In this document: piece by piece, positions 1 to 14,502 of the stretch
How positions within the stretch are numbered: position 1 is the first letter of the stretch
Layout of the letters: each line of letters opens with the position of its first letter
NCBI GenBank assembly: GCA_018825985.1
Contig: JAHKAP010000077.1
Coordinates: forward strand, 566 to 64,565
Source of the DNA: Candidatus Omnitrophota bacterium
GTDB taxonomy: Bacteria; Omnitrophota; Gorgyraeia; Gygaellales; Profunditerraquicolaceae
DNA length: 64,000 nt
Reading direction: 5' to 3'
Position numbers and translations under genes: made by a program
Notes under the pieces: generated by a model
Seen by the model: only the letters and a program-made list of their open reading frames with translations
Database searches by the model: none
What the model was told of the DNA's origin: nothing

Positions 1-1431
1 CAGAAAAACCCGAAACGGCATAAGGAGCATTATCCCCCCAAAAACACAAATAAAAGCCAAGGCGAGCATAGACAATCTCATTGCCGCCGGCACTTCTTTT
101 ATATTCTTAAATTTATCTTTTAGCCGGCCTAAAAAAGCATACTTCTGCACCTTCATAAAAGAAGCTAGGGTCAAGATACTCCCTATTACGGCGCAAAGCC
201 CATAACCTAAATGACCGCTCTGAATACAAGCAAAGATAATAATAAGCTTACTGAAAAATCCGTTAAAAGGCGGGATCCCGGCAATAGACATCGAGGCAAT
301 CAGATTAGTCTTAGCAGTAACCGGCATAATTTTAGCTAAACCTGAGGTTTCTTTTAAATCTCTTGTCCCTAAGCAATAATCTATGGCCCCGGAATTTAAA
401 AAAAGCAGGGATTTAAATATAGAATGGTTAAACAAATGAAATAATCCTCCTAATATACCTAACGGCGTTCCTAACCCAATACCTAAAACTACGTAACCAA
501 TCTGGCTGATGGAATGATAGGCTAAAAGCCTCTTAAGATCCCACTGTGATAAAGCCAGGATAACCGCTACTAATAAGGATGCTGTGCCTAAAAACATCAA
601 CACGCTCAGATATGCCTGGGTTGAGCCGATGATGCTGAAAAAGACCCTGATTAAGGCATAAACCCCTAGGGTCTTGATTAAAATTCCGGAAAGCATAGCT
701 GAAATCGAAGCCGGAGCAGATGGATGGGCATCAGCAAGCCAGGCATGGAACGGCACCAAGGCAGCCTTCAAGCCAAAACCCATTAAAAATAAGGTCCCCA
801 CAAAAGGCAATACGTAGCTGCTGTGCTTAACGCTTAACACCCTGGCTATATCCGCCATATTCAAAGTAGAGGTAAAGCCGTATAAAAAGGCAATGCCAAT
901 AAAAATGAAACAAGAAGCAACTGAACCCATAATTGCGTATTTAAAAGACGCTTCCAGCTCCTCTGCCTCTGTGCCGAATGCCACTAAGGCATAGCTGGCG
1001 ATAGAGGCAATCTCCAAAAACACGAAAAGGTTGAACAGATCTCCTGTAATAATTATTCCGTTCATACCGCAGACCATTAAAGAAAACAGGGTAAAGAACT
1101 TTGGTTTATCGGTGTACCTTTCCATATAACTTAAGGAATATACGGCTACAAAAAATGAAACCAGGCTTACCATAACCAACATAAAAATACTTAACCCATC
1201 TAACACCAGGCTTATGCCAAAAGGAGGAACCCACCCGCCGATTTTGTAAACTAAAATTTTATCGGCTGTTGAGCTTAAATAAACAGCGCAGGATATAGAC
1301 AAAGCCAGGACTACCGCACTGCTTAAAGATATAGCTATCCCGGCAAAATGCCGGACATACTTGCCCAGTAATGAAATTAAAAACGCAGTTCCTAACGGAA
1401 TAATCACAAAAAAAGGAATGATATTTACCAT
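1..1431 (-). CDS. Mrp/Mbh antiporter-like membrane subunit (NuoN/NuoM/MnhD family), 3' partial (runs off window start)
   Basis: Manual minus-strand translation from the ATG at 1429-1431 gives a polytopic membrane protein (MVNIIPFFVIIPLGTAFL...HAWLADAHPSAPASISAML...) typical of the complex I NuoN/MnhD antiporter-like family. It continues beyond position 1. Confidence 0.6.
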   Translation of the reverse strand, partial: MVNIIPFFVIIPLGTAFLISLLGKYVRHFAGIAISLSSAVVLALSISCAVYLSSTADKILVYKIGGWVPPFGISLVLDGLSIFMLVMVSLVSFFVAVYSLSYMERYTDKPKFFTLFSLMVCGMNGIIITGDLFNLFVFLEIASIASYALVAFGTEAEELEASFKYAIMGSVASCFIFIGIAFLYGFTSTLNMADIARVLSVKHSSYVLPFVGTLFLMGFGLKAALVPFHAWLADAHPSAPASISAMLSGILIKTLGVYALIRVFFSIIGSTQAYLSVLMFLGTASLLVAVILALSQWDLKRLLAYHSISQIGYVVLGIGLGTPLGILGGLFHLFNHSIFKSLLFLNSGAIDYCLGTRDLKETSGLAKIMPVTAKTNLIASMSIAGIPPFNGFFSKLIIIFACIQSGHLGYGLCAVIGSILTLASFMKVQKYAFLGRLKDKFKNIKEVPAAMRLSMLALAFICVFGGIMLLMPFRVFL

Positions 1432-1440
1432 ATTCGGGCT

Positions 1441-1779
1441 TTAACCTCTCAGTTTATTTATTTTAGTAATGTCGAAGGTGCCATATTTATCATAAATCCT
1501 AATAGCAATAGAAATGACTAAAGCCGTAACCCCTAAGCCAATAATAATCGAAGTAAGCACCAGCGCCTGAGGTAGCGGGTCAACCATATTCAGGACATTC
1601 TGATCCATAGCTTCAATAGGAGACCTCCCCTGCATACGATACCCTAGTAAAACAAAAAATAGGTTCATGGAATATTCCATAATCCCCAGGCCTATGATCA
1701 TCTTAACTAAGTTGCGTTTGCGCAAAATTCCGTAAAACCCGACGCAAAACAATAATAAACATAACAGATAAAGGCTCAT
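1441..1779 (-). CDS. MnhC/NuoK-like small membrane subunit of the Mrp-type module
   Basis: A 112-aa, 3-TM hydrophobic protein between the MnhB-like and MnhD-like genes, in the size and position expected for MrpC/NuoK. Confidence 0.55.
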   Translation of the reverse strand: MSLYLLCLLLFCVGFYGILRKRNLVKMIIGLGIMEYSMNLFFVLLGYRMQGRSPIEAMDQNVLNMVDPLPQALVLTSIIIGLGVTALVISIAIRIYDKYGTFDITKINKLRG

Positions 1780-2229
1780 CTAACCTTCTTTCTTTGATTT
1801 CTCTAAAATCACCAGGGCCAGGAAAATAGCAAACAGCCCCACCCCTACTTTTATGCCTATGGCTATATTGCTTAAAGGTATACTTCCGGCGCTGAATAAT
1901 TTAAATGACTGGCCCTTGCCTAAAATGTTCAGGAAAAATGAACCGCCTAAAAAACCTAATAAGGCAACCCCTAAAAACATAAGAGCACCGATGCTTTCCA
2001 GATTTGATGCTAAGTTGCTGGAAATTTTGGCAACCGCCGTATCCTTACCAAAAGCAAGCATAAGGTGGACAAATGACAAGGCCACAATCACTCCTCCGGC
2101 AAAACCTCCACCCGGAGAAAGATGGCCATGCAATATAATATATATCCCAAACAGCAAAATCAAACCCACGGTCAAGCGGGTAATGGTCTTAACGATCAAG
2201 CTCATACCTGTCTTCGGATTATAATTCAT
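1780..2229 (-). CDS. MnhB-like membrane subunit (Mrp module)
   Basis: A 149-aa polytopic membrane protein with Gly-rich TM helices, located in the Mrp-like gene string. Confidence 0.45.
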   Translation of the reverse strand: MNYNPKTGMSLIVKTITRLTVGLILLFGIYIILHGHLSPGGGFAGGVIVALSFVHLMLAFGKDTAVAKISSNLASNLESIGALMFLGVALLGFLGGSFFLNILGKGQSFKLFSAGSIPLSNIAIGIKVGVGLFAIFLALVILEKSKKEG

Positions 2230-2230
2230 T

Positions 2231-2752
2231 TTATTTATTCTTCTTTCTTCCCGGACGGCGCAGGACCGCCATTATCCCGATTACAGAAGCAAACAAAACT
2301 GTTGCCTCGCCTAAGGTATCATAAGCCCTGAAGTCCAGAATCACCGCAGTAACAATATTTGCCGCTCCGGTAGAAACCCTGGCCTCGGCTAAATATTTCT
2401 TTACTACCAGCATTAAAGGCTCGCCAAAACGCGGCAATTCCTTTAAGGCAAGCCAGGCGCAAAACATAAATACAGCCATAAAAACTAAGGTTGAAATAGT
2501 ATTAAATACCCAGCGGCCCTCGATTACCAAAGGCAGATCCCTTTTAATTGTAGCCCGGATAAGGATAATTAAACAAAGGATCTCAACCACCAGCTGGGTA
2601 ATAGCTAAATCCGGGGCTTTTAGAATTAAAAAAGCAAGGCAGAGAGCAAAACCAACCGCGCCTACGGCAACTACACTTGAAAGCAAATCCTTTACCTCAA
2701 TAGCTATAATCGCCCCCAAGATCATGAATATTAAAAGTATGTGTAATTCCAT
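2231..2752 (-). CDS. MnhB/DUF4040-domain membrane subunit (Mrp module)
   Basis: A 173-aa membrane protein with a 4-nt spacing to its neighbours in the same operon context. Confidence 0.45.
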   Translation of the reverse strand: MELHILLIFMILGAIIAIEVKDLLSSVVAVGAVGFALCLAFLILKAPDLAITQLVVEILCLIILIRATIKRDLPLVIEGRWVFNTISTLVFMAVFMFCAWLALKELPRFGEPLMLVVKKYLAEARVSTGAANIVTAVILDFRAYDTLGEATVLFASVIGIMAVLRRPGRKKNK

Positions 2753-2753
2753 A

Positions 2754-4409
2754 TTATTTTAACAATACCCAAAAAAGGCCAATCATCCCCAACAATGTCC
2801 AGACTAAATAAGTAGGTAAAACCCCGTTATGTAAATACTGAAGTACGCGACCGATAGAAAATACTAAATTCTTTCCTTGCTCATAGATATCGAACAGTCC
2901 GGCCTGAGCCTTTTTGTAAACTAAAGCTAATACCGGCAACTCTTTGATGGTGTTATAAAAGTCAGTCCCGTTGATTTTATTCTCCTGAATATCCCTGGTT
3001 TCGCTTCCTGTAAATGGGTTATCCTGACGCAAAACAGGCCTTAACCATCTTAATTTAAATATCAAAAGCCCCAGAACTATACCAATGATAATAAGCCAAG
3101 TAGATAACAAAGCAGACCAGGTTCCGATAAAAGAAACCCCCTTTATAACCGGAAATATAAAGTATTTAAGCGGAATTTGATAAGCTAATACGCCGAATAT
3201 CACGCAAGTAATCGCTAATATTAAACAAGGCAGCCACATTTGCCAAGGAACCTCTTTTACTTGCCAGTTTGCTTTCCGGCCTAAAAAAACCGCATGAATT
3301 AGTTTCATAAAACTGGCTAAGGTCAGGCCCGAACCAAACATTGCCGCGGCCAGGCTAAAGATTGCTATAATACGCAATCCCTGATTACCGGTTCCTAATA
3401 GGCTAATAAGGCCCTGATAGATCATCCACTTAGAGACAAAACCGTTAAAAGGCGGAACACCGGATATAGAAAGGCTGGCAATCAAAGAAGAAATATAGGT
3501 AAGAGGCATGGATTTACCTAAACCGCCTAATTTATCGAGTTCAGAGGTTTTGGTACGATATTCTACGTTTCCGGCAGTTAAAAATAAACAGGATTTATAT
3601 ATTGTATTATTAAGCATATGGAATATGCCACCGGCAATGCCAATAGGATTACCGCTGCCTATACCTAAAATCATATACCCTACCTGAGATACTGCATGAT
3701 AACCCAAGAGCCTCTTCATATTATGTTGAACCAAAGCCATCATTACCCCGGCAATAATGGTAAAGGCCCCGGTAATCATAAGAAATATATTCATGGCCTG
3801 GCTCATCGTAAATATATCCAAAGAAATCCTGGTTAATAAATAAATCCCTAATAATTTATCCAGGGAAGCGAGTAAAAAAGCCACAACGGGAATAGGCGCG
3901 GATTTAGCGCAATCAGGGATCCAGGAATGAAAAGGCATTGCCCCGGCCTTGGCAAAACAGGCGATAGCCAGGCATAAGTATGCTAAAGTAGGTAGTAGGT
4001 AGTAGTTAGTAGATAGGGAAATCTTTATTTGGTCCATCTGAAAAGTTCCGGTCATATAATAGATTATACCTATACCAAACAACATTAAGGCATCCGTTCC
4101 TCCCACGATTATAAAAGTCTTTTTTGCTGCTGAGCTGGCATCATCATTTCCCATAATAATAAGAAGATATAAAGTCAGGCCTAAAAAACCCCAACAGACT
4201 AAAAGCAGGATAAGGTTGTTTGCAAACACGGTTCCTATCGCTGCCAAAGCAGTCAAGATTATATAAACATAATACTGGAACGTTTTGGGCTTGCCTTTTA
4301 TAAACTTAAATGAATAAATTAAAATCAAGGCGAGAAAACCAACTATAGCTAAAGCTATAAATCCGCTTAGCGCGTCTAATTTAAACCAGGGATAGAAGAT
4401 ATTAATCAT
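2754..4409 (-). CDS. NuoL/MnhA/MbhH-like proton/sodium-translocating membrane subunit
   Basis: A 551-aa protein with about 14 TM helices and antiporter-like motifs (WIPDCAKSAPIPVVAFL, ISQVGYMILG). Residues 3981-4016 contain a copy of the TAG-rich repeat. Confidence 0.7.
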   Translation of the reverse strand: MINIFYPWFKLDALSGFIALAIVGFLALILIYSFKFIKGKPKTFQYYVYIILTALAAIGTVFANNLILLLVCWGFLGLTLYLLIIMGNDDASSAAKKTFIIVGGTDALMLFGIGIIYYMTGTFQMDQIKISLSTNYYLLPTLAYLCLAIACFAKAGAMPFHSWIPDCAKSAPIPVVAFLLASLDKLLGIYLLTRISLDIFTMSQAMNIFLMITGAFTIIAGVMMALVQHNMKRLLGYHAVSQVGYMILGIGSGNPIGIAGGIFHMLNNTIYKSCLFLTAGNVEYRTKTSELDKLGGLGKSMPLTYISSLIASLSISGVPPFNGFVSKWMIYQGLISLLGTGNQGLRIIAIFSLAAAMFGSGLTLASFMKLIHAVFLGRKANWQVKEVPWQMWLPCLILAITCVIFGVLAYQIPLKYFIFPVIKGVSFIGTWSALLSTWLIIIGIVLGLLIFKLRWLRPVLRQDNPFTGSETRDIQENKINGTDFYNTIKELPVLALVYKKAQAGLFDIYEQGKNLVFSIGRVLQYLHNGVLPTYLVWTLLGMIGLFWVLLK

Positions 4410-4542
4410 GATTTTATTTGAAGCTTTCTCAGGTTTACGGCACGTAATTTACCAAGATTATGCCTATAAACGAGTTCGGGCAAAATTTTGTGCACCAGGC
4501 TAAATTTATCCATAAAGCTTCTGATTACAGCGATTAAACACA

Positions 4543-4665
4543 GATTACAGAGATTAATTAGCGACGAAAAATCGCTGGAATCTTTTTTCCCGCCATGTTA
4601 ATTAAAGTAGTTAACGGGATCCCGCCTGCTGCTAGATTTACTTGGCGGGAAAAATCTCTGTAATC
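4543..4665 (-). ncRNA. Structured intercistronic RNA element with alternative pairings
   Basis: A 13-bp perfect outer stem (gattacagagatt / aatctctgtaatc) encloses an 11-bp stem (ttttttcccgcc / ggcgggaaaaa). A second ggcgggat copy could pair with the same cccgcc strand. There are further small hairpins and a duplicated gattacag. Confidence 0.3.
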
Positions 4666-4682
4666 AAGTTATTTCCCTTTTG

Positions 4683-5315
4683 CTACAAACTTGGGAAAGA
4701 ACTTTTTATTTTAGTTAAATTCCTGGCGATATTTTTAGTATGATGATAAACCTCAGCCGTAAAATCCAGGATATTAAGATACATATTACAGCCTATCGGG
4801 TTACAGACACCATCAATCATCCTCTCGGTATGCTTTTTGCGGTAAACATCAACCAGATTATTCACGCCCTTATGCCCCTTAGAAAGTTCTTTTAAAACAC
4901 ATAATTCGTTCCTACTTAAAGCGTCAACCAAATTATTTAATTCTTCTTCTACTTTATTATACAAAACAACATATTCCTTTACTGTCTCATCGCTAAAAAG
5001 CAATTTCTCTTCAATCTTAATCTCAACCCTTTCTAATATATCCTTGCAGTAATCGCCGATAAGCTCTAAATCCCCCGCCACCTCGGAATACAGAATCGCA
5101 TCCTGTTTCACCTCTTTATTCGTAACTTTAACTAAATCAACCAGCTGGTGGTTTATTTCTTTTTCATAATTATTCAGCTTATCTTCATCTTCCAAAACCT
5201 TAGCTAATAAATCCAGGTCGTGCTCCATAAAGGTTTGAAAGGTAGTCTGCCACATCTTTAAAGACAACTTAGCCATTTCTATGATTTTGTTTCTTATCTC
5301 ATTTAATTGTTCCAT
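4683..5315 (-). CDS. PhoU-domain-like helical protein embedded in the hydrogenase operon
   Basis: A 210-aa all-helical protein. The segment ...ILYSEVAGDLELIGDYCKDILERV... resembles the PhoU LERIGDhA.NIAE repeat. It overlaps the large-subunit gene by 17 nt. Confidence 0.35.
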   Translation of the reverse strand: MEQLNEIRNKIIEMAKLSLKMWQTTFQTFMEHDLDLLAKVLEDEDKLNNYEKEINHQLVDLVKVTNKEVKQDAILYSEVAGDLELIGDYCKDILERVEIKIEEKLLFSDETVKEYVVLYNKVEEELNNLVDALSRNELCVLKELSKGHKGVNNLVDVYRKKHTERMIDGVCNPIGCNMYLNILDFTAEVYHHTKNIARNLTKIKSSFPSL

Positions 5316-6498
5316 GGCCCATTCTTTCTTTAAGCGCTTCTGTCTTGTCTTGAGATAATTTAATCAAATCGAAGCCGTTTAAGATTTTTCTATCTGAGGA
5401 TTTCTCAATAACCGCGGTCCTTTCAGTGCAACAATAACAGGGGTCAACCGCAGCTAAGGTAATTGCCGCATCCGAGATAGTCCCGCCGACTGCCCCTACT
5501 TTATTAGAAGCTACATTCATATAGCTGGGAGCGCGGATCTTATGCCTTATTGGCCGGTTAGTCCCGTCAGACTTTACATAATGGAAACACTCACCGCGGG
5601 GCGCCTCAATCCTTCCTATCCCAACTCCTGCAGGTATTTGTTTAACATTAGCGTCAAATTCTCCCTTGGGCATCTTATCTAAACATTGACGGATAATACT
5701 TATTGACTCTCCTAATTCCAAAATTCTCACTACTGTTTTAGCAAAGATATCCCCCTCTTCCTGGACAATAACCTTCCAATTTACCATATCATAAGCCGCA
5801 TAAGGGTCATCCCGGCGCAGGTCCATGTTTAATCCTGAGGCCCGGGCCGTAGGCCCAACTACGCACCAATCTATAGCCTGTTGTTTGGTTAAAATTCCTA
5901 CCCCTTTAAGCCGGGATTGAATAACCGGATCATCCATAACCGCGCCCTTAAACATAGCCACTATCGGGACTAAATCATCCAAGGTCTTCTTTAATGCCGG
6001 TATGTCTTCATCTAAAATATCCCTTCTCACCCCGCCTATTTTCATCATAGCGTAGTGGTTACGGTTACCGGAAATCATTTCAAACATATCTAAGACCGGC
6101 TCGCGGTATTTCCAGGCCCACATCCAAACCGTATTGTAACCTATAAAATGGCCGGCTAAACCCAGCCATAAAAGATGGCTATGGATCCTTTCTAATTCAG
6201 CGATTATAGTCCGGATATAAAGGGCCTTTTCCGGCACTTGGATCCCAGCTAAATCCTCCATTGCCTGACAATAAGCTATAGGATGGCTATTAGAGCAAAT
6301 CCCGCAGATGCGTTCAACCAAAAAGGCAACCTGGTCAAAATGCTTGGATTCAGATAACTTTTCAATCCCCCGGTGCAAATAACCTATAACAATATCTATG
6401 TCTACTACCTTCTCTCCTTCAACATAGAGCCGGAAATACTCAGGCTCTTCCTGTAATGGATGGTATGGCCCGATAGGAACAACTACTTTATGCGACAT
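5299..6498 (-). CDS. [NiFe]-hydrogenase large subunit, group 4 (MbhL/EchE/NuoD-like)
   Basis: The N-terminal motif RICGICSNSH and the C-terminal motif DPCYCC..R provide the four Ni-Fe ligating cysteines, which NuoD lacks. The 399-aa length fits energy-converting hydrogenases. Confidence 0.85.
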   Translation of the reverse strand: MSHKVVVPIGPYHPLQEEPEYFRLYVEGEKVVDIDIVIGYLHRGIEKLSESKHFDQVAFLVERICGICSNSHPIAYCQAMEDLAGIQVPEKALYIRTIIAELERIHSHLLWLGLAGHFIGYNTVWMWAWKYREPVLDMFEMISGNRNHYAMMKIGGVRRDILDEDIPALKKTLDDLVPIVAMFKGAVMDDPVIQSRLKGVGILTKQQAIDWCVVGPTARASGLNMDLRRDDPYAAYDMVNWKVIVQEEGDIFAKTVVRILELGESISIIRQCLDKMPKGEFDANVKQIPAGVGIGRIEAPRGECFHYVKSDGTNRPIRHKIRAPSYMNVASNKVGAVGGTISDAAITLAAVDPCYCCTERTAVIEKSSDRKILNGFDLIKLSQDKTEALKERMGHGTIK

Positions 6499-6541
6499 TG
6501 AACACCTCGATACGTCTGCCTCAGGCAGACATTTAGTGAAA

Positions 6542-6590
6542 CCCCCGTCGTTTTGATTCGGTTCTACAAAGCAAAACGAACCAGCGGGGG
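6542..6590 (-). ncRNA. Intercistronic pseudoknot-like element
   Basis: cccccg...gttttg...cggttc...caaaac...gaacc...cggggg gives interleaved complementary segments (A-B-A'-B') inside a 6-bp outer stem. An adjacent hairpin gtctgcc-tca-ggcagac lies at 6514-6530. Confidence 0.25.
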
Positions 6591-6605
6591 TAAAAACACC
6601 TTTTA

Positions 6606-7076
6606 TTAATCATTTTTTTTATCTTCATGACTATGTTCATGCTCGTGGTCATGATCATGCCTTAAAGGAAATTCGCCCTGCGGCCATTCTTCAGCCAGAA
6701 GCAGACGCTTGAGATTGGGGTGACCGATGAAATTAATCCCTAATAACTCCCAAATCTCTCTTTCTATCCATTCAGCCCCGATAATTATAGGGGTAATTGA
6801 ATCTACTTTAGGATTTTTCCTATCTTCCAAATTCACCCGCAAGGATATAACTTCGCCAGACGCATCAGCGCTAAAATGATAAATTATCTCAAAGCCATCA
6901 GGGTTTTCCTGCCCTGAGGAAGTAATAAACCTTAAACCTAACTCCTTAAATAATAAGGTTACTGCTGTTTTTAAATCTTTCTGCTTAATTAGGATGTATA
7001 TCCTTCTAGGTGAATGCTCATTATAATCAATTATGGCCCGGGATAATTTTTCCTTAATCTTTTCGCGTATAGACAT
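6606..7076 (-). CDS. NuoC/MbhK-like hydrogenase subunit with His-rich C-terminal tail
   Basis: A 156-aa protein with the complex I 30-kDa subunit fold (GAEWIEREIWELLGI). It ends in HDHDHEHEHSHEDKKND. Confidence 0.75.
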   Translation of the reverse strand: MSIREKIKEKLSRAIIDYNEHSPRRIYILIKQKDLKTAVTLLFKELGLRFITSSGQENPDGFEIIYHFSADASGEVISLRVNLEDRKNPKVDSITPIIIGAEWIEREIWELLGINFIGHPNLKRLLLAEEWPQGEFPLRHDHDHEHEHSHEDKKND

Positions 7077-7184
7077 TATTTATTACTCCTTATCCTCCCA
7101 CGCCTTTTAATAGACGCGTAAAAACTCTGACGGGCTTTGGAGGATTTCGCTAAATTAGCAAAACATAACACTTATTTAAATATC

Positions 7185-7619
7185 CTATACTTTGCTTGTT
7201 GTGTGCTTAACTTTTTCTATTAACTTAACAACGCCGGCAATAATCGCCTCGGGCTTTGGCGGGCAACCCGGAACATAAGCATCCACAGGGATTACTTCGT
7301 CTACCGGACAAGGGCTATTGTAAGATTCTCTAAACATTATCCTTCCGCAGGCGCAGCTACCGATGGCAATCACTAAACAGGGCTTAGGCGCTTGTTCATA
7401 AAGCCTCTTCAATATCCCTTTGCTCTTATAATTTGGCACTCCGGTAACCAAAAGCACATCCGCATGCCTGACACTTCCCGCCAAGGTTATCCCAAACCTC
7501 TCCACATCATGGCGGGGTGTTAAGACATCCAAAATCTCAATGTCGCAGTTATTGCAAGGCGAAGCTGCGGCGTGGAATACCCATAATGATTTAGTGAGAG
7601 CCTTAAGTTTGATATTCAT
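7185..7619 (-). CDS. [NiFe]-hydrogenase small subunit (NuoB/MbhJ-like)
   Basis: Cys pattern ...SPCNNCD...GSCACGR...PGCPP for the proximal 4Fe-4S cluster, in a 144-aa protein. Confidence 0.8.
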   Translation of the reverse strand: MNIKLKALTKSLWVFHAAASPCNNCDIEILDVLTPRHDVERFGITLAGSVRHADVLLVTGVPNYKSKGILKRLYEQAPKPCLVIAIGSCACGRIMFRESYNSPCPVDEVIPVDAYVPGCPPKPEAIIAGVVKLIEKVKHTTSKV

Positions 7620-7620
7620 A

Positions 7621-8532
7621 TTATAATCCTAAAATCGCTAATATTAAACCGATTAACGCTACTAAAGTTAATTTTCCCCAGAAAAACCTGACCGCTTGAT
7701 CGATACGCACCCTGGGATTGGTATTTTTTATCAGGATTATTATGACCAATATAGCGATAAATTTTCCGATTAAAAATAAGGGGCTTAAATCCTTAGCCCA
7801 GAATAGCGTTATTAGAAATATAGGCAAAGTATAAAGCAATAGAGCCTTAATTAGTTTAAAGATCGCCAAAGGAAGACCGGAATATTCAATTAGGGTTCCA
7901 GCCATTATCTCCTGCTCAGCCTCAGAGATATCAAAAGGGGCAAAGCCTAACTTAGCCTGGATACAAAGTATAGCCACTATAAAAGCTATTGCCCCGGAGA
8001 AAGAAATTATATTGGAGCCAAAACTGACCTGATGGGCCAATATATTTCCTAACTGAATACTCCCGCCGGATCTTAGGATAATCGTAATAACGGATAATAG
8101 AAATGGCAGCTCATAAGCTAAAACTAATTTCATCTCTCGGGAAGCGCCTACCGAGGCTAAAGGGTTAGCTGATGCAGATGCCCCGATAATCATAGCTATC
8201 GCCGGTATAGTCATAAGATATAAAACTACAATCAAATCCCCCAAAAAACCCTGACCAGGATAAATAATATTTAGCCCTAAGATAGTGCTAACTAAGCCTA
8301 AGCTTAATACCCCTAAGAAAGGAGCTAAGAGAAATGTGATTTTCGCGCCTTCAGGAAAAATAATCTCTTTGCCTAATAATTTTATAATATCCACAAAGTT
8401 CTGATACCAGGGCGGGCCTACTCTCCATTGTAAGCGGGCAGTAACCTTTCTATCTACCCAACAGGCCAATAGCCCGATAACTACGCTAAACAAGAAACCC
8501 GGAAATATAAAATAATAAAATAGGGCTTTCAT
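7621..8532 (-). CDS. NuoH/MbhM-like membrane anchor subunit
   Basis: A 303-aa polytopic protein adjacent to the small subunit. NuoH-like helices and a charged loop are visible. Confidence 0.65.
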   Translation of the reverse strand: MKALFYYFIFPGFLFSVVIGLLACWVDRKVTARLQWRVGPPWYQNFVDIIKLLGKEIIFPEGAKITFLLAPFLGVLSLGLVSTILGLNIIYPGQGFLGDLIVVLYLMTIPAIAMIIGASASANPLASVGASREMKLVLAYELPFLLSVITIILRSGGSIQLGNILAHQVSFGSNIISFSGAIAFIVAILCIQAKLGFAPFDISEAEQEIMAGTLIEYSGLPLAIFKLIKALLLYTLPIFLITLFWAKDLSPLFLIGKFIAILVIIILIKNTNPRVRIDQAVRFFWGKLTLVALIGLILAILGL

Positions 8533-9020
8533 TTCTTTTTAGGCTGGATATCCTCTCTTAACCATTTCCTGGAACACACTGCCAGGGTATTGCCTATAAA
8601 ATAAATATTCTGCTCAATATTCTCTTCGACTTCCCGAACCTCAATTGCCTTTTCAGGACAATTAGTAACGCATACCGGCATCGCATCAGCCTTAGTTATA
8701 CAAAAATCACAGCGTGAATCCAGGTATGGTATAAAATCCGTAAGAATCGTGCCAAAAGGACAGGCAATAACGCAAGACTTACAGCTGGTGCAACGCATAT
8801 TGTAACGTTTCAATATCCCGTCAGGCTGTTTTTCCAGGGCATCATGATAACAAGAGTTTACGCAAGGCGCTTCTTCGCAATGCCGGCAAAATAAAGTAAA
8901 GGTGGCATATTCGCGTAAAGAGGTAACTCCGTTATTCTGCGGATGATACAAATAACTGCAAGATGCCCGGCACTCCTTACAGTTATTGCAAATATCCAGA
9001 TCGATATATAATCTTTTCAT
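8529..9020 (-). CDS. 2x[4Fe-4S] ferredoxin-like subunit (MbhN/NuoI-like)
   Basis: Multiple CxxCxxCxxxCP-type motifs (CNNCKECRASC, CRHCEEAPCVNSC, CTSCKSCVIACP, CDFCITKADAMPVCVTNCP). Confidence 0.65.
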   Translation of the reverse strand: MKRLYIDLDICNNCKECRASCSYLYHPQNNGVTSLREYATFTLFCRHCEEAPCVNSCYHDALEKQPDGILKRYNMRCTSCKSCVIACPFGTILTDFIPYLDSRCDFCITKADAMPVCVTNCPEKAIEVREVEENIEQNIYFIGNTLAVCSRKWLREDIQPKKK

Positions 9021-9021
9021 G

Positions 9022-9184
9022 ATCAGTAGGTAGTATGTAGTAGATAGTATATAGGGAAACTAAAACCTATCTAACAACTAATATATATTGCTTTAATTAA
9101 TCAGTAGGAAGCATGTAGTAGATAATATATAGAAAAACCAAACCCTACCTACTACCTACTAACTACTATATACTGGTTCATCAG
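9022..9184. repeat. TAG/CTA-rich low-complexity repeat cluster
   Basis: Two direct copies of about 40 bp (9022-9060 atcagtaggtagtatgtagtagatagtatatagggaaac; 9100-9140 atcagtaggaagcatgtagtagataatatatagaaaaacc) plus a compositionally related inverted CTA-rich copy at 9141-9184. A related sequence lies inside coding DNA at 3981-4016. Confidence 0.5.
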
Positions 9185-9996
9185 TCCCAAATATCATGCA
9201 AATCTTTCAGTTGTTCATACGTAAACACCGGACCGTCTTTACAGACATAATACGGCCCGATACGGCAATGCCCGCATTTACCCAGGCCGCAGGACATACT
9301 CTTCTCCATAGAAAGATAGATATCCGGTGGTTTGAACCCTAAGTCCAGTAATTTTAAGGTTACAAATTTCATCATTATGGGCGGGCCGCAGACTATTACC
9401 GCCGCATTATTCAAATCTACGGGCAAGTCCTTTAATATAGTAGTAACTAAACCTACGTTACCACTCCACGAAGGATCTCCCACATCAACCGTGACCATCA
9501 TATTAACTTTATCTAATTTAGCCCACTCAGGAATAAGCCCTTTATAAATAATATCATTAGCGGTCCGCGATCCATAACGTAAGACTACTTTATTGTATTT
9601 ATCCATCGAGCCGAATAACGCGAACAATAACGAACGTAAAGGCGCTAAGCCTACGCCACCGCCAACTATCAAAATATCCTTTCCGGTAAATTTATCCAAT
9701 GGATATCCTAAACCATAAGGGCCGCGGATACCTACGGGCGTATTTGGCTGAATACCATGCAATAACGAAGTAATCTCACCGGCCTTCATTATGGTTATAT
9801 CCATTTTATCCTTGATGTTAGGATCGGATGAAGGAGTAAAAGGGGCTTCGCCGATCCCCGGTAGAGTCAATTCAATAAACTGCCCGGTCTTAAATTCAAA
9901 TGGAACTTTAGGCCTCAACACAAAAGTCTTAATGTTAGGCGACTCTGTTATTATACCTTCTATAATTGCCTCTGTCGGCTTATAAATATTTTTCAT
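9181..9996 (-). CDS. HydG/AsrB-like FAD/NAD(P)H-binding 2Fe-2S oxidoreductase subunit
   Basis: A ferredoxin-NADP reductase-like fold (GQFIELTLPGIGEAPFTPSS; ILIVGGGVGLAPL) with a C-terminal CGLGKCGHCRIGPYYVCKDGPVF 2Fe-2S motif, 271 aa, as in the sulfhydrogenase gamma / anaerobic sulfite reductase B / PyrK family. Confidence 0.75.
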   Translation of the reverse strand: MKNIYKPTEAIIEGIITESPNIKTFVLRPKVPFEFKTGQFIELTLPGIGEAPFTPSSDPNIKDKMDITIMKAGEITSLLHGIQPNTPVGIRGPYGLGYPLDKFTGKDILIVGGGVGLAPLRSLLFALFGSMDKYNKVVLRYGSRTANDIIYKGLIPEWAKLDKVNMMVTVDVGDPSWSGNVGLVTTILKDLPVDLNNAAVIVCGPPIMMKFVTLKLLDLGFKPPDIYLSMEKSMSCGLGKCGHCRIGPYYVCKDGPVFTYEQLKDLHDIWD

Positions 9997-11051
9997 TTAT
10001 TCCTACTTACCTTGTCTTTGACGTCTTTTAAGACTTCCCGGATATCGATCTTTCCCGGGCAAACCTCAATACACCTACCACACCCGCAGCAAGCGGGAAT
10101 ACCCATATTATCTATAAAAAAATCAAATTTCTTAATAAACCTGTTGCGCAGGCGCTGGGTCCTGGTCTTTAAAGGATTAGCTCCTCCGGCAACGCGAGAG
10201 AAATTAGTATACTGACAACAATCCCATCCCTTTAACCGGGAGAATTCATCCCTATCTTTTTCATCCGATAAAAGAAAACAATGGCAGGTATCGCAGATAA
10301 GATTGCACCCTGCGCATTCAACACAGGTAAGCATAAATTTCTGCCAGGTATCCGCACTATAACCGTCTTTCATTAACCTCTGGACCTCAGCCTTAGAAAC
10401 CAGCCCTTGAGGGAGAAGATGTTTCCTTAAACGCTCAATAAAGCTCTCCCTTTTGGCTTTGCGGGCCAACACTTGAGTTTCTTTGGCAGGAACAAAATAA
10501 TCCTTATACCGCTGAATAAACGCTTCCCCTCTATCCGATCCTGATTCAACAATATAACCGTCATTTAAGGGAGATAGATTCAAATCAAAACCAACGGTAG
10601 GATGCGGCAGCACTTCCCAGGCCAAACAGTGACATACATTTTTAAAATCAGTACAGTCACCCGAGATCAAAACCGTATTCTCTCTTCTAGCTCTATACAG
10701 AGAATCTTTTTCCTGGCCCTCTAAAAATACGAAATCCTGAACCTTATGCCCCTGAATATCGCAAGATTTTACCCCAAAGATAACTATCTTTTCCGGCTCC
10801 CTGAAATTAACGCCTTCTTTGAAATACCCGGATACTTTTTCAAGGGGGCTGGTAAAAAAAGTCTTTAGCGGTTCAACTGCCCTGTAAGCGCTAAATCTCG
10901 GAATGTCACCCTTAAACAACCTATTATAGGAATAATCCGTCTTCTCGCCTTCAATCTCTTTGATTAAAGGCGAAAAGACCTTATAGTCTGCGCATAGGCT
11001 GTTAATCAAAAAAGGTAAATCTTTATCTTTAATATAGAATATCTTGATCAT
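9993..11051 (-). CDS. HydB/AsrA-like iron-sulfur subunit
   Basis: A 352-aa protein with CDTCHCF and CCGCGRCIEVCPGKID motifs characteristic of the sulfhydrogenase beta / AsrA family. It overlaps the HydG-like gene by 4 nt. Confidence 0.7.
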   Translation of the reverse strand: MIKIFYIKDKDLPFLINSLCADYKVFSPLIKEIEGEKTDYSYNRLFKGDIPRFSAYRAVEPLKTFFTSPLEKVSGYFKEGVNFREPEKIVIFGVKSCDIQGHKVQDFVFLEGQEKDSLYRARRENTVLISGDCTDFKNVCHCLAWEVLPHPTVGFDLNLSPLNDGYIVESGSDRGEAFIQRYKDYFVPAKETQVLARKAKRESFIERLRKHLLPQGLVSKAEVQRLMKDGYSADTWQKFMLTCVECAGCNLICDTCHCFLLSDEKDRDEFSRLKGWDCCQYTNFSRVAGGANPLKTRTQRLRNRFIKKFDFFIDNMGIPACCGCGRCIEVCPGKIDIREVLKDVKDKVSRNK

Positions 11052-11095
11052 TTTTAATTTGTCTGGGACGGGAATATTTTAGAGGGAAAACTACT

Positions 11096-11113
11096 TTGTG
11101 AAACTAATCACAA
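11096..11113. promoter_or_regulatory. Rex operator (TTGTGAAACTAATCACAA)
   Basis: 17/18 match to the Rex consensus TTGTGAA-N4-TTCACAA. It lies about 45 nt upstream of the hydrogenase-cluster start codon and downstream of the predicted promoter. A rex gene is 1.3 kb upstream. Confidence 0.6.
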
Positions 11114-11160
11114 ATTAACCCTAAAAAAAATTGCAATTCCTACTTTTCTTTAATTTTGTT

Positions 11161-11189
11161 ATAATATCTTATCGGCGTTAAACTGTCAA
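11161..11189 (-). promoter_or_regulatory. sigma70-like promoter for the hydrogenase cluster (TTGACA-N17-TATTAT)
   Basis: On the minus strand, a perfect -35 TTGACA (plus coordinates 11184-11189), a 17-nt spacer and a -10 TATTAT (11161-11166), directly after the ackA stop. Confidence 0.5.
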
Positions 11190-11197
11190 GGGAAAAT

Positions 11198-12424
11198 TTA
11201 GTCGATTTTTAAACTTATAACCCCGGGCTGAACCTTAGTCAGTTCGTAGGCATCCTGGGCAATGCATAGTTCTTCATTAGTAGGTATTACATATACCTTG
11301 ACCCGGGAGCTATCTTTACTTATCTGGGCCTCTACCCCTTTTACTGTCGAAACATTCTTTTCTTCTTCGATCTCTATACCTAAACTCTCCATGCCGCTCA
11401 AGGTATCCTGACGGATTTGAGGATTATTTTCCCCGATCCCTCCGGTAAATATTATAGCGTCAGTTTTGCCTAATACAGCCAGGTAGGCGCCGATATACTT
11501 CCTTAAGCGGTAACAAAATACTTCAATTGCTAATTTCGCCCTCTCATTACCTTTTTCCTGGGCCCAAAATAGATTACGCATATCATTACTAATCCCGGAA
11601 ATACCCATTAAGCCGCTTTTTTTATTCAGAAGCTTATTCAGGTCTTCGGGAGTATAACCTTTCCCGTTTAAATAAAAGATTATAGCCGGATCGATATCAC
11701 CCGAACGAGTCCCCATTACCAAACCTTCCAAGGGGGTAAAGCCCATACTGGTATCTACTGATTTTCCGTGGGCTATAGCTGAAACGCTACAGCCATTTCC
11801 TAAATGACAGGTTATCAGATTCAATTCTTCCTTGGGCATTTTTAGAATCGAAACTAGCCTCCTTTTAACATAAAGGTGGCTAGTACCATGAAAACCATAC
11901 CGGCGTATTTTGTATTTTTCATATAATTCATACGGAATACCGTAAATATAGGCCTTGGGCGGGATAGCATGATGAAAGGCAGTATCAAAACAAGCTACCT
12001 GGATAGCGTTAGGCAGAAATTTCTTGCTAGCCATTATGCCCATAAGATTGGGCGGGTTATGTAGTGGGGCTAAGTCCGCATACTCCTCAATCCTCATGAT
12101 TACTTTCTCATTAATTAAAACTGATTCGGTAAACTCCTCTTCGCCATGGACAACCCTATGGCCTACGCCCTGGATCTCTTCGATAGAAGAAATAACGCCT
12201 TTTTCTTTATCAGTAAGCATATCGATAATAAAATTGATCCCCTGCTCATGGGTAGCGATGGATCCTTCCAACTCAAGTTTCCCCTTAGCGCTCTTCTGAA
12301 TGAAGAAAGATTTTTCTTCGCCGATCCTCTCCAACAGCCCCTTGGCAATAACTTCTTCCTGAGGCATATTAAAAAGCTGATATTTTATCGAAGAACTTCC
12401 GGAGTTAATAACCAGTATTTTCAC
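11198..12424 (-). CDS. ackA: acetate kinase
   Basis: N-terminus MKILVINSGSSSIKYQLF and full-length acetate kinase architecture, 408 aa. Confidence 0.95.
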   Translation of the reverse strand: MKILVINSGSSSIKYQLFNMPQEEVIAKGLLERIGEEKSFFIQKSAKGKLELEGSIATHEQGINFIIDMLTDKEKGVISSIEEIQGVGHRVVHGEEEFTESVLINEKVIMRIEEYADLAPLHNPPNLMGIMASKKFLPNAIQVACFDTAFHHAIPPKAYIYGIPYELYEKYKIRRYGFHGTSHLYVKRRLVSILKMPKEELNLITCHLGNGCSVSAIAHGKSVDTSMGFTPLEGLVMGTRSGDIDPAIIFYLNGKGYTPEDLNKLLNKKSGLMGISGISNDMRNLFWAQEKGNERAKLAIEVFCYRLRKYIGAYLAVLGKTDAIIFTGGIGENNPQIRQDTLSGMESLGIEIEEEKNVSTVKGVEAQISKDSSRVKVYVIPTNEELCIAQDAYELTKVQPGVISLKID

Positions 12425-13062
12425 AGCCGCCCTCTTTTTAATTTATAAACCAGGCTCTCTAATTCCGAGGCCATATCCACATTAGAAACATAGATATTAC
12501 CCGGTAAACTTAAATTTACCGGGGCAAAATTCAAGATCGCCTTGATCCCGCTACCGGCCAATTTTTCGCTTATGCCCTGAGCTTCATCAGCGGGCACAGA
12601 AAGAACCGCAATCTTGATTCCTCTGTTTATAATCAATTCTTTCATCCTGCGGATATCTTCGATCTTTATACCTGCGAGGACCTTGCCGATTTTTTCCGGG
12701 TCATTATCAAAAGCTGCGGATATCTGAAGATTCAGCTCCAAAAACCCCGGATAACCTAAAAGGGCAAAGCCGAGTTTTCCTACTCCTATCAAGGCAATTT
12801 TCCTGACAACATTGGTGCCCAAGATCTTACCGATTTCCTGCCTAAGCGTTTCTACATCGTAACCTATGCCCCGGCGGCCAAATTCCCCGAAATACGAAAG
12901 GTCTTTGCGGAACTGAACCGAAGAAACATTCAAAAACCTGGTGATCTCTTCGGAGGAAGCGACTTTAGTCTTATTCTGGATAAGCCTTTTCAGGCTTCTC
13001 AAGTAAAGGCTGAGCCTGCGCGCAGTCTCCTGGGGAATATGTATATTGGCGTCTATCGGCAT
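12421..13062 (-). CDS. rex: redox-sensing transcriptional repressor Rex
   Basis: An N-terminal winged helix (ARRLSLYLRSLKRL...) plus a Rossmann NADH-binding domain (KIALIGVGKLGFALLGY), 213 aa, with a 4-nt overlap with ackA. Confidence 0.85.
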   Translation of the reverse strand: MPIDANIHIPQETARRLSLYLRSLKRLIQNKTKVASSEEITRFLNVSSVQFRKDLSYFGEFGRRGIGYDVETLRQEIGKILGTNVVRKIALIGVGKLGFALLGYPGFLELNLQISAAFDNDPEKIGKVLAGIKIEDIRRMKELIINRGIKIAVLSVPADEAQGISEKLAGSGIKAILNFAPVNLSLPGNIYVSNVDMASELESLVYKLKRGRL

Positions 13063-14079: not shown

Positions 14080-14502
14080 TTATTTTACCACTTCTGCCTT
14101 AATTGTAAACCTCAAAATAGGATTGTCCGGATTATCGGTATTTACATAAACAAATTGCTGGATGGCTCCGGAATAACCTTTAGTCTTAAAAATAACTTCG
14201 ATCCGGGTAGATTCACCCGCCTGTAATTTATTTTTGTCAGCCTTTGAGCCGGTACAACCGCAGGAGGTATTCACATTTTTAATATTTAAAACTTTTCCGG
14301 AGTCATTTGTAAGGTTAAAATCATGCTTTAACTCTACCCCCTGTTTAACCGTTCCGAAATCCCAGATATACAACTCATCCAGAGCTGCCTCGCCGGTCAG
14401 ATTATTTCCTGCGGCAAAACAATTAGGGGAGGTTAAAGACAATAATACTAAGATTAAAACGGCAAATATCCTTTTCATCATAATCTCCAGACTAATAACC
14501 AA
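14080..14502 (-). CDS. secreted DUF1573-like protein
   Basis: Signal peptide followed by ...WDFGTVKQGVELKHDFNLTNDSGKVLNIKNVNTSCGCT..., the characteristic DUF1573 core. 140 aa. Confidence 0.5.
   Translation of the reverse strand: MVISLEIMMKRIFAVLILVLLSLTSPNCFAAGNNLTGEAALDELYIWDFGTVKQGVELKHDFNLTNDSGKVLNIKNVNTSCGCTGSKADKNKLQAGESTRIEVIFKTKGYSGAIQQFVYVNTDNPDNPILRFTIKAEVVK

Follow-up and report, generated by a model that had tools for sequence, protein, structure and literature searches.

The hun operon of an Omnitrophota bacterium: a Rex-linked group 4g [NiFe] hydrogenase with a putative NAD(P)H-type flavoprotein module

Here we describe a minus-strand gene string at one edge of a 64-kb window (the whole stretch of Omnitrophota DNA analysed, 64,000 nt) that, judged by gene order and protein signatures, is a hun operon, predicted to encode a 16-subunit Mrp-linked group-4 [NiFe] hydrogenase together with one PhoU-like accessory gene (Table 1). 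Read along the minus strand, rex and ackA, the stop codon of the former overlapping the start codon of the latter by 4 nt, are followed by a predicted promoter, a Rex operator and then a single string of hun genes, the last of which runs off the window edge. The source contig beyond coordinate 1 carries the rest of the MnhD gene, then hunM, hunN and hunO (MnhE, MrpF and MnhG) and hunP (NuoI/HycF-like), and the full hun operon was recovered in L001. Downstream of hun on the same contig lie a Ni/Co ECF transporter and a V/A-type ATPase operon. All of the genes named in a preliminary description of this DNA were found on the minus strand at the positions it gave, including rex and ackA, with the Rex operator lying, as stated, ahead of the hydrogenase genes. 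Its “MnhB, MnhB” pair is actually an MbhD/MbhE-type gene followed by an MnhB gene, and the string it called tightly spaced contains spacers of 160, 108, 107 and 273 nt in this genome; at the same four junctions in 67 related loci, the medians range from −17 to +6 nt. The hyp genes that it had proposed looking for were not found in the 64-kb window.

Table 1. Genes and sequence features of the rex-ackA-hun region (window coordinates).
Feature	Coordinates	Strand	Description and supporting match
hunL	1..1431	-	MnhD-like; 3′ end cut off by window edge
hunK	1441..1779	-	MnhC/NuoK-like; Pfam Oxidored_q2, E 4e-27
hunJ	1780..2229	-	MnhB-like; Pfam MnhB, E 4e-26
hunI	2231..2752	-	MbhD/MbhE-like; Pfam MbhD + MbhE
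hunH	2754..4409	-	Antiporter-like, NuoL/MrpD type; Pfam Proton_antipo_M, E 2e-57
PhoU-domain gene	4683..5315	-	Pfam PhoU, E 7e-16
hunG	5299..6498	-	[NiFe] large subunit; NiFeSe_Hases + Complex1_49kDa domains
hunF	6606..7076	-	NuoC-like; Pfam Complex1_30kDa, E 9e-28
hunE	7185..7619	-	Hydrogenase small subunit, NuoB-like; Pfam Oxidored_q6, E 6e-27; NuoB family (NCBIfam)
hunD	7621..8532	-	NuoH/MbhM-like membrane subunit; Pfam NADHdh, E 4e-59
hunC	8529..9020	-	Four-cluster HycB/CooF-type ferredoxin, proposed “wire”; Fer4_11
hunB-hunC spacer	9021..9180	-	160 nt; two tandem ~78-nt copies + inverted repeat
hunB	9181..9996	-	AsrB/HydG-like FAD/NAD(P)/[2Fe-2S] subunit; FAD_binding_6, NAD_binding_1, DHODB_Fe-S_bind
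hunA	9993..11051	-	AsrA/HydB-like multi-[4Fe-4S] subunit; Fer4_22 domain
Predicted Rex operator	11096..11113	.	TTGTGAAACTAATCACAA; one mismatch to consensus TTGTGAANNNNTTCACAA
Predicted promoter	11161..11189	-	Sigma-70-like, TTGACA-17 nt-TATTAT; consensus match alone, 11/12 positions
ackA	11198..12424	-	Acetate kinase, GTG start; Pfam Acetate_kinase, E 4e-158
rex	12421..13062	-	Redox-sensing repressor; Pfam Put_DNA-bind_N + CoA_binding

The large subunit HunG contains both Ni-binding motifs, as had been claimed for it (L1, RICGICSNSH; L2, DPCYCCTER), and beyond L2 it has a conserved C-terminal extension of 39 aa. Among solved structures, MbhL (6cfw_L, E 4e-86) and HycE come closest to it, and a 4d/4e assignment had been expected; the CGIC/CYCC signature is instead that of Hun, which is HydDB group 4g. 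Translation of hunC reveals 16 Cys in four groups, three of them of the form CxxCxxCxxxC, and the best solved relatives of the product are HycB3/HycB4 of HDCR and HycB of E. coli formate hydrogenlyase. HunP, whose solved relatives include HycF and MbhN, is by sequence a NuoI/HycF-type 2x[4Fe-4S] subunit, and HunD and HunH-O are NuoH-like and Mrp-like membrane subunits. The PhoU-domain gene overlaps the end of hunG by 17 nt, and its product has the T. maritima PhoU homologue 1sum as nearest solved relative. A PhoU-like gene follows hunG in 27/79 loci and lies between hunD and hunE in L066.

The combination of hydrogenase, HydBG-like and Mrp genes, noticed when this DNA was first described, is already known as the published “Hun” supercomplex, a 16-subunit assembly reported from Omnitrophica, Atribacteria, Elusimicrobia and Kosmotoga (Glass et al., bioRxiv 10.1101/536078; Environ Microbiol 2021), and the same asrA/asrB plus Mrp architecture was noted by Matheus Carnevali et al. 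(2019, PMC6349859). We identify the present locus as Hun because its gene order and CGIC/CYCC signature match those of Glass et al. (bioRxiv 10.1101/536078). The ortholog in Kosmotoga olearia shares 60% identity and all 16 genes, and in our survey Hun relatives were found in at least 597 species genomes. New in the present analysis are the recurrence of a Rex box close to hunA, the strict or near-strict conservation of the FAD, NAD(P) and [2Fe-2S] motifs of HunB, an internal wiring that seems to copy that of formate hydrogenlyase, and the PhoU-like gene as a recurrent accessory of hun loci.

The HydB/HydG-like module was correctly recognised from the outset: its two proteins are homologues of the beta and gamma subunits of P. 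furiosus sulfhydrogenase I, the pair that oxidises NADPH (HunA against beta, 9nez_B, E 5e-33; HunB against gamma, 9nez_C, E 8e-56). HunA has 16 Cys that are invariant across 62 orthologs and by sequence carries about three to four [4Fe-4S] clusters. In HunB, the GGxGxxP motif and the four [2Fe-2S] Cys are present in 66/66 orthologs and the xPF(T/S) motif of the FAD site in 61/66, with E50 and P52-S57 at least 95% conserved. Because HunA falls below the NCBIfam cut-offs of ShyB, HydB and AsrA, and HunB (216 bits against AsrB) below those of AsrB, HydG and ShyC, and thus both below every characterised subfamily's cut-off, any transfer of substrate by homology is indirect. HunAB is an obligatory part of Hun: in each of the 66 loci with a contig long enough to show it, hunA and hunB immediately precede the hydrogenase genes, with median gaps in relatives of −4 nt between hunA and hunB and of 6 nt, with frequent overlaps, between hunB and hunC. 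The 160-nt hunB-hunC spacer of this genome is unusually long by comparison. It contains a long-range inverted repeat of roughly 33 bp that reaches the hunC start codon (MFE −44.3 kcal/mol, z −2.67) and lacks a T-run, and no consensus terminator was called on the minus strand at 9021-9180.

The product of rex scores 246.7 bits against the NCBIfam Rex model NF003995 (cut-off 126). The predicted promoter, the top sigma-70-like match in 16.5 kb, begins 9 nt past the ackA stop codon, and downstream of it, 45 nt upstream of the hunA start codon, is the predicted Rex operator, the sole such site in the 64-kb window (0.01 expected by chance). Among 63 related loci, 25, from several phyla, have a Rex box (one mismatch or none) no more than 75 nt from hunA, as against a single match in the other 1.14 Mb of sequence in these loci; in Kosmotoga olearia, which is cultured, the box lies 15 nt upstream of hunA. 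A consensus Rex box was absent from ~60% of the 63 loci searched. Ten loci, with the labels Omnitrophota, Clostridia and Auribacterota, have the rex gene itself upstream of hunA; in nine the two are directly adjacent, and in this genome ackA lies between them. Comparison across loci makes both the anatomy of the operon and its link to Rex stronger than a single sequence could.

The explanation that we favour, with moderate confidence, is a Rex-gated, NAD(P)H-fed, H2-evolving complex. Its architecture would resemble formate hydrogenlyase or CODH-Ech, in which a soluble dehydrogenase module is joined by a polyferredoxin wire to a membrane hydrogenase, the dehydrogenase module here being the flavin/FeS pair homologous to sulfhydrogenase I beta-gamma. 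Electrons from NAD(P)H would enter at the FAD and [2Fe-2S] cluster of HunB and pass through HunA, HunC, HunP and HunE to the [NiFe] site in HunG; NAD(P)H coupling of this kind is plausible. Evolution of H2 from NADH is uphill by ~18 kJ/mol under standard conditions, and an H+ or Na+ gradient acting through the membrane arm would therefore most likely pay for it, in a reaction that would be reversible. Transcription is predicted to start at the promoter just after ackA and to be gated by Rex at the operator, so that Hun would be made at high NADH/NAD+, suggesting a fermentative redox valve that runs towards H2 evolution. With its NAD(P)H-type flavoprotein module and conserved Rex site, Hun is a good candidate for the disposal of surplus NADH as H2. 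We count the upstream ackA, the Ni/Co ECF transporter and the V/A-type ATPase as context for this explanation. Against it stand the many loci that lack a consensus Rex box, the scores of HunA and HunB below all subfamily cut-offs, the long spacer with its stable inverted repeat between hunB and hunC in this genome, and the possibility that ferredoxin docks on HunP or HunC.

A possible but clearly less probable reading is that Hun uses ferredoxin only, reduced by pyruvate:ferredoxin oxidoreductase and donating to HunABC or HunP, in which case H2 evolution would be exergonic and would pump H+ or Na+ outward as in Mbh, and the NAD(P) site of HunB would be vestigial or have a side role. A vestigial site would not be expected to keep its GGxGxxP and FAD-site residues in 66 orthologs from several phyla. 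Mbh, to which the nearest solved large subunit belongs, is itself ferredoxin-dependent; it accepts ferredoxin at MbhN itself, having to our knowledge neither a flavoprotein nor a HycB-type wire. AsrAB is NADH-linked, and the NCBIfam family description of sulfhydrogenase I, the closest solved homolog of HunAB, gives it as NAD(P)H-dependent. Donation of ferredoxin through HunABC is nonetheless the sole published model (Glass et al., bioRxiv 10.1101/536078), and HydDB gives group 4g a putative coupling to ferredoxin. The ferredoxin-dependent Ech membrane hydrogenase of C. bescii is likewise under Rex repression, and Rex control of hun therefore fits either electron donor.

It is unlikely that Hun runs in the uptake direction, as an ion-pumping H2:NAD(P)+ oxidoreductase that saves ~18 kJ/mol as an ion gradient, as it might in H2-using acetogenic Omnitrophota. 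The cofactor chain would be identical to that of the NAD(P)H-fed, H2-evolving complex, electron transfer from H2 to NAD+ releases energy (standard potentials of −414 mV for H2 and −320 mV for NAD+), and genes for the Wood-Ljungdahl pathway occur in some Omnitrophota that have group 4g hydrogenases; against this, Rex lifts its repression once NADH has accumulated, the opposite of what an enzyme that makes NADH would need, and the operon is linked to the fermentation gene ackA. Very improbable is a separate HunAB, acting as a sulfite/polysulfide reductase or as the soluble partner of another hydrogenase with the 160-nt spacer as a transcription boundary, for although that spacer holds a stable inverted repeat in this genome and HunB reaches 216 bits against AsrB, both proteins are below the Asr cut-offs, no asrC was found in the 64-kb window, no terminator was called in the spacer, and hunAB directly precedes hunC in 66/66 loci.

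Among known systems, P. furiosus Mbh (group 4d, PDB 6CFW) shares with Hun a NuoH/NuoB/NuoC/NuoD/NuoI-type core and an Mrp-derived membrane module, and differs in the aligned L2 motif (CLSC in Mbh, CYCC in Hun). Mbh has 14 subunits, one of them antiporter-like. The Hun of Glass et al. (bioRxiv 10.1101/536078) has the 16 genes in the same order, an AsrAB-like HunAB without AsrC, the same CGIC and CYCC motifs in HunG and the same phyla, with Omnitrophica named and a Kosmotoga olearia ortholog. In contrast, the present copy has long internal spacers, a PhoU-like gene after hunG that the text of that paper leaves unmentioned, and rex-ackA with a Rex operator, whereas the paper makes no mention of Rex and proposes a ferredoxin donor. 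The “enigmatic” group-4 region of Saganbacteria RX5A, with nearest relatives stated to be in Zixibacteria and Omnitrophica, likewise combines asrA-/asrB-like and CooF-like genes with hydrogenase and Mrp-like subunits, but includes a molybdopterin oxidoreductase that is absent here (PMC6349859); a similar insertion occurs in L066. E. coli formate hydrogenlyase (group 4a, PDB 7Z0S) offers the same modular chain from dehydrogenase through HycB (the counterpart of HunC) and HycF (that of HunP) to the small and large subunits, with FdhF, which uses formate, in place of the flavoprotein pair and with no Mrp module. Finally, sulfhydrogenase I beta-gamma (group 3b, PDB 9NEZ) and AsrAB share the FAD, NAD(P), [2Fe-2S] and multiple [4Fe-4S] motifs of HunAB, which falls below all cut-offs of these subfamilies; they work with a soluble group-3 hydrogenase or with the sirohaem protein AsrC, whereas the partner in Hun is a membrane group-4 enzyme.

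The hydrogenase locus at positions 1-13062 of the window, every gene of which lies on the minus strand, is, as judged from its genes and motifs, a rediscovery of the already described, uncharacterised complex "Hun", a 16-subunit Ni-Fe hydrogenase / Na+/H+ antiporter supercomplex (Glass et al., bioRxiv 10.1101/536078). These authors reported that HunAB is similar to AsrAB with AsrC missing, alongside the ferredoxin HunC and Mrp-like subunits, assigned the large subunit HunG to HydDB group 4g with an unusual CGIC/CYCC motif pair, modelled ferredoxin as the electron partner, and named Atribacteria, Firmicutes, Omnitrophica, Elusimicrobia, Bacteroidetes and Kosmotoga as hosts. Matheus Carnevali et al. 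(PMC6349859) described a group-4 hydrogenase, termed "enigmatic", that is accompanied by asrA, asrB, cooF and Mrp-like genes and has its nearest relatives in Zixibacteria and Omnitrophica, and Williams et al. (PMC8542988) reported Mrp-linked group 4g hydrogenases in Omnitrophota genera. Our literature searches found no Hun follow-up work, no Kosmotoga hydrogenase biochemistry and no structure paper for sulfhydrogenase I.

Domain searches bore out all of the gene identities proposed in the preliminary description. The AsrA-like and AsrB-like genes hunAB lie directly 5' of the hydrogenase genes, and HunG carries both of the Ni-ligating motifs that had been noted, L1 CGIC (RICGICSNSH) and L2 CYCC (DPCYCCTER). 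The genes for the ferredoxin HunC, the NuoH-type, small, NuoC-type and large subunits, the Mrp-like HunH-O and the NuoI-like HunP follow in the published 16-gene order across the window and its source contig (L001), on which the remainder of the MnhD gene is succeeded, beyond the window edge, by MnhE, MrpF, MnhG and NuoI-like ferredoxin genes. This source contig is JAHJDV010000001.1 of the Omnitrophota MAG GCA_018812325.1. Two CxxC Ni-ligand motifs, a NuoB-type small subunit and partners of the NuoC, NuoH and NuoI types place the enzyme in group 4 of the [NiFe] hydrogenases; a 4d/4e-like large subunit had been expected, and the literature instead gives group 4g for HunG, a label that we take from there.

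Features of the hydrogenase locus and its upstream region
Feature	Position	Strand	Description
rex	12421-13062	-	NCBIfam Rex 246.7 bits, cut-off 126
ackA	11198-12424	-	acetate kinase
sigma-70-like promoter	11189-11161	-	TTGACA, 17 nt, TATTAT; region's best match; 9 bases past ackA stop
Rex operator TTGTGAAACTAATCACAA	11096-11113		between promoter and hunA start codon; one mismatch to consensus
hunA	9993-11051	-	AsrA/HydB-like, Fer4_22
hunB	9181-9996	-	AsrB/HydG-like, FAD / NAD / [2Fe-2S]
hunC	8529-9020	-	16-Cys ferredoxin
hunD	7621-8532	-	NuoH-like
hunE	7185-7619	-	small subunit
hunF	6606-7076	-	NuoC-like
hunG	5299-6498	-	large subunit
phoU-like	4683-5315	-	PhoU domain
hunH	2754-4409	-	NuoL/MrpD-like
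hunI	2231-2752	-	MbhD/E-like
hunJ	1780-2229	-	MnhB
hunK	1441-1779	-	MnhC
hunL	1-1431	-	MnhD, truncated by window edge

DPCYCCTER is present in all 120 of the best HunG homologs (81-95% identical, with named sources all labelled Omnitrophota). The nearest 50%-identity cluster representative is a Kosmotoga protein (60% identical) that has CYCC too, and the other full-length-matched representatives are at most 49% identical to HunG, except for a NuoC-fused DPCYSCTER protein (57%). The hun operon of Kosmotoga olearia TBF 19.5.1, at CP001634.1 608398-629606, comprises the same 16 genes in identical order. The remainder of the window has a housekeeping character (LPS glycosyltransferases, lpxK, topoisomerase, purine synthesis and similar). 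A 394-aa ORF on the minus strand (14478-15662), for which no Pfam match was obtained, combines a signal-like segment at the N-terminus with a CNHC motif and numerous predicted membrane helices; its synteny with adjoining DUF1573 and M48 peptidase genes is kept in L092, a locus from another Omnitrophota genome.

One genome per species was scanned for HunG relatives, and at least 597, with labels from about eight phyla, encode one; 80 of these loci, the ORFs of which were labelled with the window proteins, were analysed. The labels of the 80 loci comprise Omnitrophota, Elusimicrobiota/Endomicrobia, Clostridia, Nitrospirota, Margulisiibacteriota, Auribacterota, Fibrobacterota and Verrucomicrobiota. 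The order hunA-B-C-D-E-F-G-(phoU)-H-I-J-K-L-M-N-O-P recurs in essentially every one of them. Several variants were observed. In five loci (L038, L041, L043, L047 and L050) hunA-G, phoU-like and hunH are followed directly by hunP, without the Mrp-type hunI-O, and four of these contigs (not L038) go on for kilobases. In L066, from a Nitrospirota-labelled MAG, three extra ORFs of 153, 668 and 310 aa lie between hunB and hunC, where some MAGs have a molybdopterin-domain protein (Glass et al., bioRxiv 10.1101/536078). Directly 5' of hun in L039 (~1-5000) there is a second set of HunA-like, HunB-like and large-subunit-like genes. This set probably represents a sulfhydrogenase operon of group 3b, from which the HunAB module may have evolved; in L041 the upstream matches are limited to additional genes resembling the large and small subunits.

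The genes had been described as tightly spaced, which holds for the relatives by median gap (hunA-hunB -4 nt, hunB-hunC 6 nt, remaining junctions -17 to +2 nt) but only in part for this genome, with spacers of 160 nt at hunB-hunC, 108 nt at hunE-hunF, 107 nt at hunF-hunG and 273 nt at phoU-hunH. The 160-nt spacer contains two tandem copies of ~78 nt and forms, when folded, a long inverted repeat extending to the hunC start codon (-44.3 kcal/mol, z -2.67) and lacking a U-tract; the terminator scan called no terminator there on the minus strand, and the repeat may be a processing or attenuation element. Since no Rfam family exceeded its threshold anywhere in the window, the unusual spacers correspond to no known RNA elements. 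One arm of the spacer repeat, AGTAGGTAGTATGTAGTAGATAGTATATAGGG (9025-9056), matches positions 3987-4018 inside the hunH coding sequence with 3 mismatches (0.00 expected); the hunH stretch encodes SLSTNYYLLPT, and the likeness may reflect a small duplication or compositional coincidence. Both hunA and hunB are present in 66 of the 66 loci whose contig extends far enough upstream. This linkage and the short gaps speak against the HydBG-like genes being a separate transcription unit at the family level, and hun is at that level predicted to be one operon with an obligatory flavoprotein pair.

The phoU-like gene overlaps the end of hunG by 17 nt and follows hunG in 27 of 79 loci; every one of these is on a contig of Omnitrophota type (HunG identity 72-84%), some of them otherwise labelled. 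In L066 a homolog (8401-9018; 140 bits to window 4683-5315) is found between hunD and hunE, not after hunG, and this recruitment at two positions argues that the PhoU-like protein works with Hun. The protein retains the E-x-x-G-D-x-x-x-D motif of the first PhoU repeat, and its nearest solved relative, by weak but consistent sequence matches, is the T. maritima PhoU homologue; a single-sequence AlphaFold model (pLDDT 39.7) was unusable.

The preliminary description had also placed an operator of the redox-sensing repressor Rex between rex-ackA and the hydrogenase genes. A search with the consensus TTGTGAANNNNTTCACAA returned that site as the only one in 64 kb (0.01 expected by chance), and the box recurs in relatives. 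Of the 63 loci for which upstream sequence is available, 25 (labelled Omnitrophota, Elusimicrobiota/Endomicrobia, Clostridia and Nitrospirota, plus two unclassified MAGs) have it, with at most one mismatch, no more than 75 nt from the predicted hunA start, and there is one further match in the remaining 1.14 Mb of the same 63 loci. Kosmotoga olearia has TTGTGAATTTTATCACAA 15 nt 5' of hunA. A rex gene lies 5' of hunA in 10 loci, directly adjacent in nine and with ackA between in this genome. Given the Rex protein and an operator in the promoter region that is kept in orthologous loci, hun can be assigned to the predicted Rex regulon, a link of which we found no mention in the Hun literature. 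Rex control argues for the direction of the reaction (H2 evolution at NADH excess) and not for the donor, because in C. bescii Rex also represses the ferredoxin-dependent Ech hydrogenase (PMC6391272), and the authors of that study stress that Rex targets go beyond NADH-using enzymes. The upstream synteny of the window (PTS EIIA, a 392-aa protein, DUF1573, M48 peptidase and rex) is shared by L092 (2412-21179), in which nfnAB-like genes, hydG, hypC-hydE, a second rex, hydF and an [FeFe] hydrogenase follow in place of ackA-hun; since other redox genes occupy the same synteny, the rex-adjacent site seems to hold interchangeable redox-balancing modules.

No hyp genes were found in the annotation of the 64-kb window. 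In many related loci, many Omnitrophota loci among them, hycI follows hunP and hypF-hypC-hypD lie upstream of hunA, and HunG has a conserved C-terminal extension of 31-58 aa, which would fit classical Hyp/HycI maturation. The extension, which follows DPCYCCTER (window 5299-5418; orthologs in L006-L085), keeps a motif of roughly (D/E)L(I/V)(K/R)LSQEKT across phyla; C-terminal peptides cleaved in [NiFe] maturation are usually poorly conserved. Just past window coordinate 1, the source contig (L001 18581-21137, equivalent to L086 8626-11182) carries hydG and a HypC-HydE fusion directly after hunP. The hydG gene is bona fide (TIGR03955, 536 bits, cut-off 312), and the fusion joins an N-terminal HupF_HypC domain with Cys2, a chaperone domain of the [NiFe] type, to a HydE-like radical SAM domain. 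All 120 of the best fusion homologs keep the HypC domain (58-100% identical; named mostly as Omnitrophota, some Elusimicrobiota), and no paper on the fusion was found in the literature. That this pair makes the CO/CN ligands of the [NiFe] site, an idea that arose because Kosmotoga olearia has hycI-hypF-hypC-hypD at the same place, is weakened both by L092, where the pair adjoins hydF and an [FeFe] hydrogenase, and by the classical hypFCD and hycI genes that flank hun in many Omnitrophota loci; the L092 arrangement suggests that it probably serves [FeFe] maturation.

Among solved structures, HunA and HunB are closest to the beta and gamma subunits of P. furiosus sulfhydrogenase I (9nez_B, E 5e-33, and 9nez_C, E 8e-56, respectively), and since both score under all of the NCBIfam cut-offs for ShyB/HydB/AsrA and AsrB/HydG/ShyC they form a subfamily of their own. 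The GGxGxxP NAD(P) motif and four [2Fe-2S] cysteines are present in 66/66 HunB orthologs and the FAD-site xPF(T/S) motif in 61/66, with core residues at least 95% conserved, and HunA has 16 invariant cysteines. HunC is closest to HycB3/HycB4 of the hydrogen-dependent CO2 reductase and HycB of E. coli formate hydrogenlyase, the solved relatives of HunP include HycF, NdhI, MbhN and NuoI, and those of HunG are MbhL (E 4e-86, 292 bits) and HycE (E 5.5e-80, 272 bits). Hun therefore has the same architecture as formate hydrogenlyase and the CODH-linked hydrogenases, in which electrons would pass from a soluble dehydrogenase through a four-cluster wire, a NuoI-type subunit and the small subunit to the [NiFe] site, the dehydrogenase slot in Hun being taken, on this scheme, by the NAD(P)H-type flavoprotein pair HunAB. 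Sulfhydrogenase I, the closest solved HunAB homolog, is an NAD(P)H user according to its NCBIfam family description, and AsrAB is NADH-linked. On account of this wiring and of both these homologs, we infer that NAD(P)H is more likely the partner of Hun, whereas Glass et al. (bioRxiv 10.1101/536078) proposed ferredoxin. The NAD(P)H and ion-gradient reading first drawn from the window is strengthened by the comparison and appears plausible, in contradiction to the published model.

The contig context fits an ion-coupled fermentative role: ackA precedes hun, and genes for a Ni/Co ECF transporter and an operon for a V/A-type ATPase lie downstream. On the source contig (L086 11185-21070) cbiM-PDGLE-cbiQ-cbiO, which probably encode this transporter, come after the hun-hydG-hypC/hydE string, and the ATPase operon (A, B, D, I and c subunits) is next; rex, ackA, hun, transporter and ATPase together are a roughly 30-kb energy and redox island. 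With E0' of -320 mV for NAD+/NADH and -414 mV for 2H+/H2, electron transfer from NADH to H2 costs ~+18 kJ/mol under standard conditions, and it is feasible only below roughly 10^-3 atm H2. Since one ion over a 150 mV gradient yields ~14.5 kJ/mol, NADH-dependent H2 evolution could be powered by an ion gradient through a membrane arm that has two antiporter-like subunits; run in reverse, Hun could conserve energy from H2-dependent NAD+ reduction.

We tentatively propose, as a reading that is possible but somewhat doubtful, that Hun is a widespread ion-gradient-driven NAD(P)H:H+ oxidoreductase, in effect complex I working in reverse on protons, that vents NADH as H2 under a Rex switch and with a PhoU-like accessory. 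Fermenters would thereby convert their NADH straight to H2 with no need for an electron-confurcating [FeFe] hydrogenase, Rex would turn Hun on when NADH/NAD+ rises, and the PhoU-like protein, recruited at two operon positions, would be an accessory regulator or metal-handling factor. In acetate-forming fermentation and in syntrophy, the thermodynamic bottleneck is the disposal of NADH as H2; electron-confurcating [FeFe] hydrogenases, or Rnf plus Ech, are the known ways around it. If NAD(P)H and H2 are coupled via an ion gradient, Hun, which is common among the uncultured phyla of subsurface and sediment, would offer a third way within a single complex, and be an evolutionary link between membrane hydrogenases and the NADH-oxidising complex I. 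The hypothesis is testable now, because the cultured Kosmotoga olearia shares both the operon and the Rex box. Of the new facts, the most useful are the cross-phylum Rex box, cultured species included, and the strict HunAB linkage with its motif conservation; together they make the NAD(P)H question directly testable.

Among known systems, Hun is not the anaerobic sulfite reductase AsrABC, as that reading needs the sirohaem subunit gene asrC and the window annotation contains no NIR_SIR-type gene, with HunA scoring 101.8 bits (cut-off 323) and HunB 216.2 bits (cut-off 288.6). The group 3b sulfhydrogenases are soluble heterotetramers with a group-3 large subunit (HydA or ShyA) and a delta small subunit; against HydA, HunG reaches 26.7 bits where the cut-off is 880, and against ShyA 45.4 bits (cut-off 700), and only the beta-gamma homologs are shared with Hun. 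Nor does Hun belong to the class of the ferredoxin-coupled, Mrp-linked Mbh (group 4d), which has 14 subunits and no dehydrogenase module, since HunA, HunB and HunC are additional subunits, and HunG is not specifically Mbh-like, MbhL and HycE being comparably distant from it by bit score.
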